64,000 nucleotides of DNA from Candidatus Poriferihabitaceae bacterium (GTDB lineage: Bacteria; Pseudomonadota; Gammaproteobacteria; Arenicellales; Poriferihabitantaceae): assembly GCA_965206445.1 (NCBI GenBank), contig CBDBJR010000002.1:1065422-1129421 (forward strand), given 5' to 3'. Numbering within the stretch: the stretch's first letter is position 1; the number at the start of each line of letters is the position of its first letter. The notes beneath the pieces are model-generated. The model saw nothing but the letters and a program-made list of their open reading frames with translations. It searched no databases and was not told where the DNA came from. Made by a program: the position numbers and the translations under genes. Positions 8,495-50,149 of this stretch are shown here, one piece after another.

Positions 8495-8622
8495 GTGCAG
8501 CCGCAAAATGGCCGCCTGGCGGGTGTTCTACAACACCGAACGACCTCATTTTCCCTTGCAGCTGCAATCTCCTGTACAATTTCGGTGCCATTCGCGCAGT
8601 CCGATATGTTATGGTTGCATAC
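8495..8622 (+). mobile_element. Right-end remnant of the IS481-like IS (diverged copy)
   Basis: Translates SRKMAAWRVFYNTERPHFPLQLQSPVQF, cf. NRKMAAWLVEYNTVIPHHSLGLQTPIQF of the intact copy. The nucleotide block CCGCAAAATGGCCGCCTGGC is identical. It ends ...GCATAC. Confidence 0.6.
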
Positions 8623-8697
8623 GGGATATTGATCAGATTGGTCGGGTCAGTTTACAATTAAAGATTTTTAACGAGATTTTAAACATGTGGATAGTAT

Positions 8698-9660
8698 ATG
8701 AACAATAATTCATCCGTTGCCGTTTTTATAGATGTGGAAAACATTCTCTATTCCACGCTTAATAATTATTCCGAAACGCCTGATTGGTCTTTCATTGTTG
8801 ATGCCTGCAAAGCGTATGGGCGAATTTCGTTTATACAGGCCTTTGGTGATTGGATTGAATTTCCAAAGGAGGTTCCTGAAATCCAAAGAAACGGCATACA
8901 ACCTGTCTTTGTACCGTTGTCGCAAGATAAAAAAAGCAGCCTGGATTGTTATTTGACGGTGTCGGCCATGAAGCTGTTCTTTCAAAACAGCTCTATTGAT
9001 ACGCTCATTCTCGCATCGGGTGACCGCGACTACATTCCGTTAATTTCCGAACTTAAGGCCTCGGGGAAGAGTGTGATTATACTGGCTGTTCCGGAAACAT
9101 TATCTAAAGACCTGACCAGCATCGTTGATGGCGTTATTTCATACGAGTCAAAAAGCGTGGGCAGAGTTGGTGACGCTTCCATCGAGTCGGCCGATAGGCA
9201 CGAATTTCAGGAAGATGTGATCGGCACGGTAAGAGAGTGCGAGGAGCGTTCGCCTAATGATCGTTGGGTAAATTTAGCCGCTATCGGTCTGGCCTTGAAA
9301 AAGAAAGATTCAAATTTTACGCATACAAAATACGGCTACAGAAAACTGGCTGATATGCTGCATGCTATCCCTCAACTTGAGCTTAAGTACGACAACTACG
9401 AGAAGACCGTCGCGCTGACGAGAACGCGGACAGGGGAGGCGGTAAAAGACGCCGGTAATTTACTTGAGGGCACTATTTGCAACATCAAGGAAGGGTATGG
9501 TTTTATTAGACCAAACGAAGGCCACGAAAACATATTTTTTCACCACAGTAAGTTATTGCAGATTGAACTGTGGGAGTTAAACACGGGAGATGAGGTTTCC
9601 TTTAGCGTTTATAACACGGACCGAGGGTTGAGCGCCGAGAATGTTCAAAAGAAAGCCTGA
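8698..9660 (+). CDS. NYN (LabA-like PIN nuclease) - OST-HTH/LOTUS - cold-shock domain protein
   Basis: NYN: VAVFIDVENI ... LILASGDRDYIPLISELKASGKSVIILAV. LOTUS: RWVNLAAIGLALKKKDSNFTHTKYGYRKLADMLHAIPQLEL. CSD: EGTICNIKEGYGFIRPNEGHENIFFHHSKL...GDEVSFSV. Lies in a low-GC islet. Confidence 0.8.
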   Translation: MNNNSSVAVFIDVENILYSTLNNYSETPDWSFIVDACKAYGRISFIQAFGDWIEFPKEVPEIQRNGIQPVFVPLSQDKKSSLDCYLTVSAMKLFFQNSSIDTLILASGDRDYIPLISELKASGKSVIILAVPETLSKDLTSIVDGVISYESKSVGRVGDASIESADRHEFQEDVIGTVRECEERSPNDRWVNLAAIGLALKKKDSNFTHTKYGYRKLADMLHAIPQLELKYDNYEKTVALTRTRTGEAVKDAGNLLEGTICNIKEGYGFIRPNEGHENIFFHHSKLLQIELWELNTGDEVSFSVYNTDRGLSAENVQKKA

Positions 9661-9779
9661 GAGCGTGGCCGCACCGGCGCAGACGACCGGCCGCCCATAG
9701 GCACTGGCCGATGCAATCCGCCACTTGCGCCGCCAATATCCTAACTTCTAATATAGGCTGTTTGGTTAGACGGGATCAG

Positions 9780-10178
9780 ATGAAAACGTGCAAGAAATGT
9801 GGAAGCCATGATTTTGGCACTTGGACATCCGCATCACGTGGCACAGTTCATTACTACTGTCGGAGTTGTCGGCGCAAACGAGCGGCTACATATACCGCAA
9901 GAAAACTTCACAATGGTGGTACTCATACTCAGTCACAATGGTTGAAGAGGCTGAAGGAATATGATCGGTGTCCTCGATGCAAACGGGTCTGGCACGAAAT
10001 ATCACCACGCCCTGATAGGCGATATCGGTATGTTTGGACAAAGGATCATATCCTCCCATTGACTCGGGGAGGAACAGACGACATCATCAACATCCAGCCT
10101 CTCTGCTATCAATGCAATTCCTCAAAGTGTGATGGAAGGCAAAAAAAACCCGAACCATATATGTCTCGCGGTGGTTAG
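9780..10178 (+). CDS. HNH endonuclease with N-terminal zinc-ribbon-like Cys pairs
   Basis: MKTCKKCGSHDF...YYCRSCRR...CPRCKRVWH...KDHILPLTRGGTDDIINIQPLCYQCNSSK (H-N-N core). ATG at 9780 is preferred over the upstream ATG at 9711. Confidence 0.8.
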   Translation: MKTCKKCGSHDFGTWTSASRGTVHYYCRSCRRKRAATYTARKLHNGGTHTQSQWLKRLKEYDRCPRCKRVWHEISPRPDRRYRYVWTKDHILPLTRGGTDDIINIQPLCYQCNSSKCDGRQKKPEPYMSRGG

Positions 10179-10598
10179 CGCGTGGTGACAACTGCCTGAG
10201 CGACTTCCTGCGATAATAGAAATATCCACCGGCACAACAGGAAATCACGCTCTTAATGCAGTCTCGGCAATAGTGACTACGCTACAGGCTGTTAGCTGTA
10301 TTTGTGTTACTGATCGGCATAAGGCAGGCGCTACTCATAACGCCATTGACCAACAATCGACGCAATATCGATTATTTAGGCATGGTTGAATTGCGATAAC
10401 AGCGACACCGCAAGCTGTTTTATTGAAAAAACGGCGAATTTGCAGAAAAAAGTCAAAATTATGATGAATATTGCTAATAATATAGGAAATGTGGAATATC
10501 TGCAGGGCGGATTCAGCCGCTAAAAAACGCATTTTGCATGGCGGCGGTTATCTGATATAGTGGACGGCAATCTTTAACACTCCGAAGAGGTGAATCCA

Positions 10599-49229: not shown

Positions 49230-49362
49230 TTCGTTATGTGGCAATCATGGTACGCCTCGCCTTGGGGCGGGGAGGTGCCATTGGTTTTCGAGGCTGAAAA
49301 TCTTTGATCGAGAGATGACTAATGATGTTGATAAGCCACCTTCAAGGGATATAACGCGCCCC

Positions 49363-49524
49363 GGACGGGTGAGTAATGCGTAGCAGCCGGCACGGTGGTG
49401 GGGACTGACTCCGTGCCGGCAGTCGCGGTAATATGGAGGGTGCAGGCGTTAATCGGAACCACTCGGCGCAAAGCGCAAGCAGGCGGTTTGTTAAGCCAGA
49501 TGCGAAAACCCCGAGCTGGCCAAC
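49363..49524 (+). pseudogene. Decayed, internally deleted 16S rRNA gene fragment
   Basis: GGACGGGTGAGTAATGCGTAG (16S ~pos 100-120) followed by ...ACTGACTCCGTGCCGGCAGTCGCGGTAATATGGAGGGTGCAGGCGTTAATCGGAACCACTCGGCGCAAAGCGCAAGCAGGCGGTTTGTTAAGCCAGATGCGAAAACCCCGAGCTGGCCAAC. The second block aligns to the 16S 500-620 region at ~85% by eye. Confidence 0.75.
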
Positions 49525-49559
49525 ATTTTTTTGGCCGGGCTGGCGGCGAATCATGGGGT

Positions 49560-50132
49560 TGCTAAAAAAACGAAACCAAAAACAATACGCACCCTGCTGC
49601 GCCGGCGTTGTTTTTGTACTGGCGACGAGTTCGCTTGCGCACGCTTTTGCCCTCGGCGTGTCAAACCAGACTGCGTAGAAACCTGTATCGACCCCAACAG
49701 CCGCTTCGCCGTCGCCTTTGCAGCCAATTCCGCTGCCAGCCGCAATGCCGCCATCGCCCTGGATGCGCTCATCGACCTGCTGCCCATATAACCGCAATAT
49801 CTGCTCTCCGATAACGGCTCCGAGTTTATGGGAGACTTCCCACAACGCCTTGATGAGCGCGGTATTATCCACTGGTGGCCCACTGGTGGCTCTACCCCGG
49901 ATCACCCAAAATGAGCGCCCACTGTGAGCGCTGCAACCGCACCCTCCAGGAACAGTTCGTGAATTATCACGCGGAGTTGCTGTTCACCGACCTGTCCCTG
50001 TTCAACCGTAAAATGGCTGCGTGGCTGGTCGCCTGTAACACCGTCATTCCCCACTATAGCCCCGGCCTGCAAACCCCGCTGCAATTCGGCTTCCAGCAAC
50101 TGCCGGAGTGCCAAAGATACTGGCCTTATACA
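49560..50132 (+). mobile_element. 5'-truncated, frameshifted copy of the IS (transposase pseudogene), right terminus retained
   Basis: KKTKPKTIRT...IDPNSRFAVAFAANSAASRNAAIALDALIDLLPI* / ...SDNGSEFMGDF.. / ...YPGSPKMSAHCERCNRTLQEQFVNYHAELLFTDLSLFNRKMAAWLVACNTVIPHYSPGLQTPLQFGFQQLPECQRYW. Lesions: premature TAA and an 11-bp tandem duplication at 49869-49890. Confidence 0.8.
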
Positions 50133-50149
50133 ATTGGACCCATAAATGC

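Follow-up and report, generated by a model that had tools for sequence, protein, structure and literature searches.

We report that the insertion sequence (IS) copies in a 64,000-nucleotide stretch of a Candidatus Poriferihabitaceae genome (assembly GCA_965206445.1, contig CBDBJR010000002.1, positions 1,065,422 to 1,129,421; hereafter the window) belong to a clade of the IS481 family with an oriented association with predicted promoters. The association is a statistical one: members of this clade insert with a 5-bp target duplication, 5 bp separate their right end from a putative sigma-70-type -35 hexamer downstream, and their transposase gene reads in the same direction as the promoter. The window contains a single intact element (r5) and a series of co-oriented relics (r0 to r4 and r6). 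With a probability of roughly 70%, we consider that promoter-targeted, oriented insertion followed by promoter-constrained decay of the inserted copies explains this arrangement as a whole.

The closest relatives of r5 (loci L001 to L005, 87-95% nucleotide identity) are found in a Nitrospirales metagenome-assembled genome (MAG) and a Gammaproteobacteria MAG. The occurrence of near-identical IS in these two groups indicates recent cross-phylum transfer, perhaps within one community. In eight of their nine right ends, the tip is followed by five bases of variable sequence (N5) and then by a -35-like hexamer (TTGACA, TTTACA, TTGTAT, TTGAAT, TTGATT or TTGTCA), which places the hexamer at position +6 relative to the tip. 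Three clean insertions identify N5 as the target duplication (CAAAC, AATAG and ATAGG).

A scan of metagenome contigs for the right-tip pattern yielded 72 loci. In a position matrix built from 68 unique flanks, the sequence c-T-T-G-A-C-A emerges at +5 to +11 (T in 51 of the flanks at +6, T in 49 at +7 and G in 48 at +8), and T-A-n-n-n-T follows at +29 to +34, corresponding to a 17-nt spacer. After orthologous sites had been clustered, the metagenomes and MAGs provided 60 independent flanks of right ends, and 33 of these carry TTG at +6. A full promoter, defined as a -35 hexamer with at most two mismatches, a spacer of 16-18 nt and a TAnnnT with at most two mismatches, begins at +6 in 24 of the 60 sites, while every other offset from 1 to 40 is represented by no site or one site. 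The promoter signal is confined to the downstream side of the right end, and its -10 element is spaced 16-18 nt from the -35 and points away from the IS. Since the spacers all differ, the predicted promoters at +6 are separate host promoters, some of which precede tRNA genes. The first long open reading frame (ORF) downstream of the TTG sites is co-oriented in 24 cases and opposed in 14, although calls based on the longest ORF are too noisy in GC-rich DNA for this ratio to be informative. We also considered mimicry of the left inverted repeat, in which a circle junction of the form right repeat-N5-TGTATA would resemble right repeat-N5-TTGACA, and rejected it: the flanks favour TTG and not TGT at +6 to +8.

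The same relation is seen in finished genomes and plasmids with enterobacterial relatives, which share 43% amino acid identity with the window transposase; the Prokaryotic Genome Annotation Pipeline assigns them to the 'IS481 family' or the 'ISKpn28 family'. Records from Klebsiella and E. coli with such ISKpn28-like elements number in the thousands, one E. coli genome has the IS at 38 places, and the elements end in the same right tip (...TGGACCCATACA). Matching 5-bp duplications were found in six of six insertions, each with a hexamer at +6: CACTC with TTGACT ahead of a colicin V immunity gene (L079), TCTCC with TTGCCT (L081), GGGTC with TTGACA upstream of blaKPC-2 (L082), CCTCC with TTGCAA beside hok (L084), CTGTG with TTGTAA at an ldr locus (L095, also L097) and TGTCC with TTGCAA beside dinQ (L096). 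Two loci do not conform to the +6 relation (L083 and L088) and two conform in part (L094 and L080). In the K. aerogenes plasmid NZ_CP139392.1 (positions 3700-7700; L082/L089), the ISKpn28-like IS lies within the right inverted repeat of ISKpn27, and the -35 that it adjoins is the outward-facing TTGACA tip of ISKpn27, directly upstream of blaKPC-2. ISKpn27 itself was considered as a clade member and rejected; it has a different transposase and different ends, a 6-bp duplication (TATAGG), and the TTGACA is its own outward tip. Six of the enterobacterial loci (L080, L083, L084, L095, L096 and L097) have a type I toxin-antitoxin locus (hok, ldr or dinQ) as neighbour, and the promoters targeted there may be those of the antisense RNAs.

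The intact element r5 (40606-41689, + strand) is 1084 bp long, has TGT...ACA termini and is bounded by inverted repeats of 25-26 nt (left TGTATAAGCTCAGAAACCTTTGGCAC, right GTGCCAAAGGTATTGGACCCATACA) with the common core ACCTTTGGCAC. Its transposase ORF (40652-41713, + strand) encodes 353 amino acids with HTH_32/HTH_28 and rve/rve_3 domains (Pfam); LZ_Tnp_IS481 gave a weak Pfam match, and no sigma-70 region-4-like domain was found in the N-terminus by Pfam at E-values up to 10. The best NCBIfam model was NF033577 (transpos_IS481; E 1.3e-52), with 179 bits against a model cut-off of 224 bits, and the runner-up was IS3 with 93 bits. A single ORF, a length of about 1-1.1 kb and TGT inverted repeats, as expected of the IS481 family, are all found in r5. 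IS481-family elements generate short target-site duplications of 4-15 bp, and duplications of 5 bp were found among the relatives (L001, L003, L005, L079, L081, L082, L084, L095 and L096). The r5 transposase is 100% identical to a database protein (P0001) whose cluster has 61 members; the source genome carries several copies of the IS, because at least five transposase variants of this cluster occur on one 3.36-Mb contig. P0076, another homologue of the transposase in the database, gave a match to a cold-shock domain.

The transposase ORF of r5 has no stop codon within the IS, and translation terminates in the flank. The last IS-internal codons, W-T-H-T, are encoded by the right tip, and the database protein variants differ only after ...WTHT, where each ends in residues encoded by its flank. 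A transposase ending in ...W(W)THT, a right tip ending in ...TGGACCCATACA, the lack of an internal stop and TGT...ACA ends are hallmarks of this IS481 clade. At r5, the stop codon is a TGA that overlaps the GTG start codon of an FAD-dependent oxidoreductase (DAO) gene (GTGA; window 41689-41713). The right tip is 20 bp ahead of that start codon. The IS separates the upstream region of the DAO gene from its ribosome-binding site, and read-through expression and translational coupling would be possible in this configuration.

No target duplication or flanking direct repeat is present at r5. The 5' 845 bp of the DAO gene are duplicated (41690-42534 and 32478-33322, 99.2% identity), and the duplication begins exactly at the r5 tip. 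The copy behind r5 is full length; the other retains 393 bp of native upstream region and is cut at 33322 beside a BCCT transporter gene. Since the target duplication is missing and a duplicate of the right flank starts at the tip, r5 is not a simple insertion, and some IS-end-associated rearrangement has occurred there. The upstream region of the first DAO copy also contains a palindrome resembling repetitive extragenic palindromic sequences (ATTCCCGCTTGCGCGGGAAT, 32168-32190).

Relics were detected with blastn and tblastn searches of r5 against the window, local alignments, and a search of the six-frame translation with a family hidden Markov model (HMM), and all are on the + strand. Three of them stand ahead of predicted promoters. 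The right-end relic r1 (8474/8501-8623, IS positions ~931-1084; HMM E 1.4e-8; tblastn amino acids 313-340, E 4.6e-6) starts 18 bp past the stop codon of a metallophosphoesterase gene (7572-8456) and has a degenerate tip (...ATGGTTGCATACG). Five nucleotides after this tip, and thus exactly at +6, begins the promoter-like sequence TTGATC-18-TACAAT (8629-8658, + strand), ahead of a gene for a protein with NYN, LOTUS and cold-shock domains. Relic r4 (35672-35942) is left-truncated and internally deleted, joining amino acids 147-191 to 305-349 (tblastn amino acids 147-191, 305-321 and 329-349; blastn 81% over 138 nt, E 1e-30). On the left it directly adjoins the start codon of a ureidoglycolate lyase gene that runs divergently (35176-35673, minus strand), and its tip is followed after 6-7 nt, within 1 nt of the expected offset, by a putative promoter TTGACT-18-TAGTAT (35949-35978, + strand) ahead of a YadA-type adhesin gene. 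Relic r6 (~49560-50132, IS ~520/644-1084) is left-truncated and, with an 11-bp indel and stop codons, pseudogenised (blastn 83% over 452 nt, E 2e-135; tblastn amino acids 209-355; HMM E 4e-46), and its tip is complete (...CTGGCCTTATACA). Immediately after it lies a tip-like 14-mer of the r5 type (ATTGGACCCATAAA, 50133-50146, + strand), which is probably the stub of an earlier insertion, then three nucleotides and a promoter-like TTGACC-16-TAGTAT with a TG before the -10 (50150-50177, + strand), ahead of an S15 peptidase/Dpp operon. Relic r6 thus fits the +6 relation once this 14-nt second tip is passed.

The other relics comprise two right-end pieces, an internal fragment and a copy with both ends. 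The relic r0 (3480-~3782) is an internally deleted copy of about 300 bp that retains both IS ends. Its left end (TGTATAGGCTCAGCAAC) agrees with the intact left end, IS positions 1-140 align to 3480-3619, and an N-terminal peptide is detectable at 3532-3651 (HMM E 0.0036); the right inverted-repeat core (GTGCCAAAAGTACCGG) is found at 3758-3782, the right half of the match being weak. The fragment r1b (9669-9748, IS 293-373; blastn 74%, E 2.8e-7; HMM E 0.07) has neither end and lies between the NYN and HNH genes. Relics r2 (27762-27826, IS 1011-1075) and r3 (32011-32084, IS 1011-1084) are right-end pieces, the former lacking the last 9 nt of the tip and having its left breakpoint about 25 bp after the stop codon of the neighbouring gene, the latter having a complete tip (...GGAGCTATACA). 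Both are located inside one direct repeat of 176-178 bp (27651-27826 and 31901-32075, 88.8% identity), which contains the last 90 bp of a LysR gene together with the IS relic, and for this reason r2 and r3 count as one relic that has been duplicated. The repeat brackets a 4.07-kb low-GC cassette beginning at 27827, in which genes for a fatty-acid hydroxylase, a GMC oxidoreductase, an unknown protein and a glyoxalase are all on the minus strand. Since the repeat stops 9 bp before the IS tip, the cassette junction was not made by an IS end; the arrangement looks like the integration of a circle by homologous recombination and not like an IS-end event.

The original prediction had listed six copies of one IS, all on the + strand, and these copies, their approximate coordinates, the intact status of 40606-41689 and the homology of the remnants to the IS were all confirmed by our alignments and HMM searches. 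Their attribution to a single IS requires revision. The relics are only 66-83% identical to r5 and accordingly derive from several related IS species of one IS481-family clade, r2 and r3 are one relic, and r0 and r1b had been overlooked. The statement that the left end is always missing holds for the copies listed earlier but not for r0. We agree that the shared polarity and right-end retention are unlike the random decay of randomly inserted two-ended elements, and that the IS mark the upstream edges of gene blocks. These blocks, which had been described as distinct accessory modules, are transcription units with the stubs at their heads.

Seven independent fragments on the + strand have a probability of about 0.016 under random orientation. 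About 80% of the window ORFs are also on the + strand, with a cumulative GC skew that rises throughout, and given this bias the probability is about 0.2 (0.8^7). A uniform + polarity is expected, since orientation follows the target promoter and most ORFs are on this strand. In itself, the window is an ordinary IS graveyard.

The retention of right ends calls for a second component. Across the window and loci L001 to L005, which were found by protein-seeded searches, there are at least eight right-only relics, no left-only relics and several internally deleted two-ended copies, and further right-only stubs occur among the sampled plasmid matches (L085, L086 and L087). Two pairs of orthologous sites show that truncation follows insertion, because the same site is occupied by a full-length IS in one genome and by a left-truncated one in the other. 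At one tRNA promoter, L064 has a full IS and L012 has only IS 863-1086, with right flanks that are 99.5% identical over 1.3 kb and unrelated left flanks; at another promoter, L081 has a full IS and L086 retains IS 860-1094, cut beside IS903B. The same order of events is probable for the window, where the left breakpoints of r1, r2 and r4 are directly beside the neighbouring gene. Stubs have neither a target duplication of their own nor an end-like sequence at the left boundary, and therefore did not transpose as stubs.

We propose that insertion at promoters would place every copy at the head of a transcription unit and in the orientation of that unit, and that copies would subsequently decay by deletion. 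A deletion that removes the right end would have to terminate within the 5 bp before the -35, or else the promoter would be destroyed; a deletion that removes the left end could terminate at any point of the upstream spacer that the insertion displaced. Where a promoter serves genes still in demand, right-end stubs and two-ended copies with internal deletions would consequently build up; the survival of left-only stubs would be expected mainly at sites with dispensable downstream genes. Internal or left deletions that appear to have been tolerated include r0, r4, two copies at L004 (L004a and L004c) and derivatives of 108 and 618 bp. The promoter finding itself could reflect direct reading of the sequence, dependence on RNA polymerase, or the survivorship of intergenic insertions.

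Internally deleted derivatives that keep both ends recur at different sites among the metagenome relatives (108 bp at L027 and L039; 716 bp at L010 and L074; 618-626 bp at L013, L032, L058 and L063), as non-autonomous elements in the manner of miniature inverted-repeat transposable elements (MITEs), and no direct repeat was found at any of these three size classes. MITEs are short, non-coding, two-ended and present at several unrelated sites; r0 is a single copy in the window, with no duplication found. At L004 (9955-13716, Nitrospirales MAG OZ242177), two internally deleted copies in direct orientation enclose two promoter-plus-gene modules and a 114-bp solo right end. This unit is bounded by two ordinary IS ends with CCGGC on both sides, 5 bp upstream of TTGTCA, and looks like a composite transposon.

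Several observations weigh against our explanation. All promoters considered here are consensus predictions. About 45% of the sites outside the window have no TTG at +6, and -35 targeting is a strong preference and not a rule. Within the window, no -35-like hexamer is present at +6 of r0, r3 or the intact r5, leaving a fit in only three of the six independent copies that have a right end, a fraction close to the ~55% found elsewhere. Direct repeats of any length or offset are absent from about nine two-ended copies in Joint Genome Institute (JGI) metagenomes, which may be due to mis-assembly through repeats. The promoter constraint on right-end loss is an inference. Left-only relics do exist in the E. 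coli relatives (IS 1-670 together with 1-61 at one locus, and 1-43 at a second), and in the sampled E. coli listing left-only and right-only relics each occur at two loci. In every case the left-only relic in E. coli is truncated by another IS or adjacent to one, in an island-like setting; this fits a selection-based model in which dispensable downstream genes make right-end loss tolerable. No part of the IS is better conserved than the right end (97.7% identity between ISKpn28 variants, compared with 89.7% for the left end), so old left-only stubs would be under-detected and the asymmetry inflated. Across plasmids, the left 300 bp were found at 1705 places and the right 300 bp at 2500, counts that are confounded by the unequal conservation and by clonal inheritance and thus lend weak support. 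Finally, a co-oriented, left-truncated copy comes directly after a full IS at L002 (135-1084), L080 (794-1094, with outer flanks CCTCC/TCTCC) and L062, and a left fragment followed by a full IS was never seen, which may point to a further mechanism that generates right-end fragments. Taken with these observations, the excess of right over left ends is real in the window lineage, not absolute, and dependent on context.

The original prediction had offered two mechanisms for the retention of right ends, neither of which was borne out as a general explanation. Recombination or deletion between co-oriented IS copies would have to remove left parts repeatedly; a refined form has a newly arriving copy enter a resident one and recombine with its left part or with an upstream copy, leaving a full IS followed by a right fragment. 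The structures at L002, L080 and L062 are what the refined form predicts, and the missing duplication at r5, the start of the DAO duplication exactly at the r5 tip and the shared CCGGC on the left flank of L004a and the right flank of L004c are also in its favour. However, two full direct copies that recombine leave a full copy, no stub in the window has a full copy ahead of it, and the left junctions adjoin unrelated genes or other IS families. The stubs differ by 15-35%, too much for efficient homologous recombination, and are not adjacent to other copies, and nested insertion predicts left fragments followed by a full IS equally often, or more often where the left homology is short, as at L002. 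We regard recombination, in its simple and refined forms together, as unlikely. Less probable still is the proposal that the right end travels with downstream DNA, whether by one-ended or read-out mobilisation in the manner of ISEcp1, IS91 and ISCR or by right-end-first insertion resembling that of long interspersed nuclear elements, in which the left side would already be truncated on insertion. Some right-only fragments are indeed very young (L004b and L012a, 98% and 99% identical to full copies), and this proposal could also accommodate the JGI copies that lack direct repeats, the DAO duplication that starts at an IS tip and the right-end, promoter and gene modules within the composite-like L004 unit. 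Against it, the transposase is of the DDE/rve type of the IS481 family and not of the HUH or IS1380 type, clean copies are two-ended with 5-bp duplications, and stubs have neither duplications nor end-like left boundaries. Moreover, the DNA downstream of different right ends consists of unrelated native promoters and genes, the same-site pairs place truncation after insertion, E. coli has left-only relics, and DNA beyond the right tip is outside the transposon and would be immobile with a stub that lacks a left end. Elements of both mechanisms do occur, namely the right-flank duplicate at r5 and the L004 unit, and the view of the IS as the main architect of the region goes beyond these findings.

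It is also conceivable that the pattern is an artefact of detection and sampling, in which orientation merely reflects leading-strand gene bias and right ends remain recognisable longest. The right 300 bp are far better conserved among variants than the left 300 bp, the window relics, at 66-83% identity, are near the detection limit, the + strand carries about 80% of genes, and the E. coli sample has no asymmetry. Nonetheless, young fragments with 96-99.6% identity are also right-only (L004b, L012a, L085 and L086), the left end and N-terminal peptide of r0 were detectable at 66% identity, and detection cannot produce an association with promoters at +6. We consider such an artefact very improbable, on a level with the mobilisation of downstream DNA or marginally above it. 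Promoter-targeted insertion followed by promoter-constrained decay is the explanation that we retain.

Other features close to the relics were recorded as side observations. The low-GC islet downstream of r1 (8698-10178) consists of the NYN-LOTUS-cold-shock-domain gene (8698-9660) and an HNH endonuclease gene, with r1b between them. The YadA-type trimeric autotransporter gene downstream of r4 (36106-40407, 1433 amino acids) contains a 72-bp tandem array (38928-39599) and repeats of ~570-700 bp. Between a flavin monooxygenase-like gene and r6, scrambled 16S rRNA-like pieces occupy 49350-49520 and include GACGGGTGAGTAATGCG..., the 515F-like GTGCCGGCAGTCGCGGTAATA and GGCGGTTTGTTAAGCCAGATG; the only Rfam match within this region is at 49403-49438 (16.8 bits, E 0.0089).

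Among known elements, the window IS most closely resemble the ISKpn28-like subgroup, with which they share a transposase with HTH and rve DDE domains, a length of ~1.08-1.10 kb, TGT...ACA termini, a tip that encodes ...WTHT with an ORF running out of the element, 5-bp duplications and TTGnnn at +6. They differ from it in having only 43% amino acid identity and inverted repeats that are dissimilar except at the tip. Classical IS481 of Bordetella generates a 6-bp duplication at NCTAGN. Together with ISKpn27, which also has a 6-bp duplication, it belongs to another subgroup than the ISKpn28-like clade. In the papers searched, ISKpn28 is reported only as a disruptor of mgrB and as a plasmid passenger, with no target rule (PMC6101004).

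According to Guerillot et al. (2014, PMC3942029), the TnGBS integrative and conjugative elements (ICEs), ISLre2 and some ISKra4 elements insert in a fixed orientation upstream of sigma-A/sigma-70 promoters. Their offset from the -35 is 15-17 bp, the right inverted repeat is the end beside the promoter, the promoter stays intact, and promoter-upstream insertion was called atypical among prokaryotic transposable elements by the same authors (PMC3942029). The fixed orientation, the position of the right inverted repeat and the preservation of the promoter are also found here. By contrast, those elements have a Mutator-like p-MULT 3/4 transposase with an N1-N2 signature motif instead of an rve/IS481-type one, and their offset is 15-17 bp, compared with 5 bp in the present clade, where the -35 occupies +6 to +11 and the duplication abuts it. 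The hosts of those elements are mostly Firmicutes, whereas the present clade is found in Proteobacteria, Nitrospirota and metagenomes. As its transposase is of the rve/IS481 type and not Mutator-like, the clade is a functional analogue of TnGBS/ISLre2/ISKra4 and not a member.

The ISAba32 subgroup of IS1202 inserts in a fixed orientation by XerC/D sites with 5-6-bp duplications that are occasionally absent, and TGT ends are common to IS3 and IS481 elements (bioRxiv 10.1101/2022.12.17.520857). Likewise, ISAba32 has TGT ends and a distantly related rve transposase, and it keeps a short, constant distance from a DNA motif to which proteins bind; it differs in that its targets are xrs/dif-like and abutted by the left end, whereas here promoters are abutted by the right end. 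ISEcp1 (IS1380) and IS91/ISCR also place an IS end directly upstream of passenger genes, but they use IS1380 or HUH transposases and not an rve/IS481 transposase, and they move downstream DNA by skipping the right end, leaving a duplication around the whole unit. Such is not the case here: no duplication was found around any unit of stub and module in the window, and the only multi-part unit flanked by a duplication is L004 (CCGGC).

The targeting rule appears to be new for the IS481 family and akin to known promoter targeting. A full-text literature search, which did not extend to ISfinder or TnPedia, returned no report of -35 targeting by IS481-family elements including ISKpn28, and a prior description is possible. 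Tentatively, and at slightly less than even odds, we suggest that a widespread IS481 subgroup, ranging from symbiont and MAG elements to the ISKpn28-like elements of clinical Klebsiella and E. coli, joins active sigma-70 promoters exactly 5 bp upstream of the -35 in one orientation, by a previously undescribed mode of targeting that evolved independently of TnGBS and ISLre2 and may depend on promoter-bound RNA polymerase and not on the hexamer alone.

Here, a local puzzle of co-oriented right-end stubs has led to a general, testable rule for a whole IS subgroup. This would be a second, phylogenetically independent case of promoter-aimed DDE transposition, in which recognition can be compared between an rve transposase with a 5-bp offset and Mutator-like transposases with offsets of 15-17 bp. 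For genome annotation, a conserved stub of the form ...TGGACCCATACA-N5 could mark a promoter directly downstream, and such stubs do not in themselves show that the IS brought in the genes behind them. The subgroup is carried by resistance and virulence plasmids of Klebsiella and E. coli, with one copy (L082) placed 5 bp ahead of the promoter driving blaKPC-2, and the rule could help to predict landing sites and expression effects. If the explanation is correct, right-end stubs at the heads of operons would represent a fossil record of promoter targeting.

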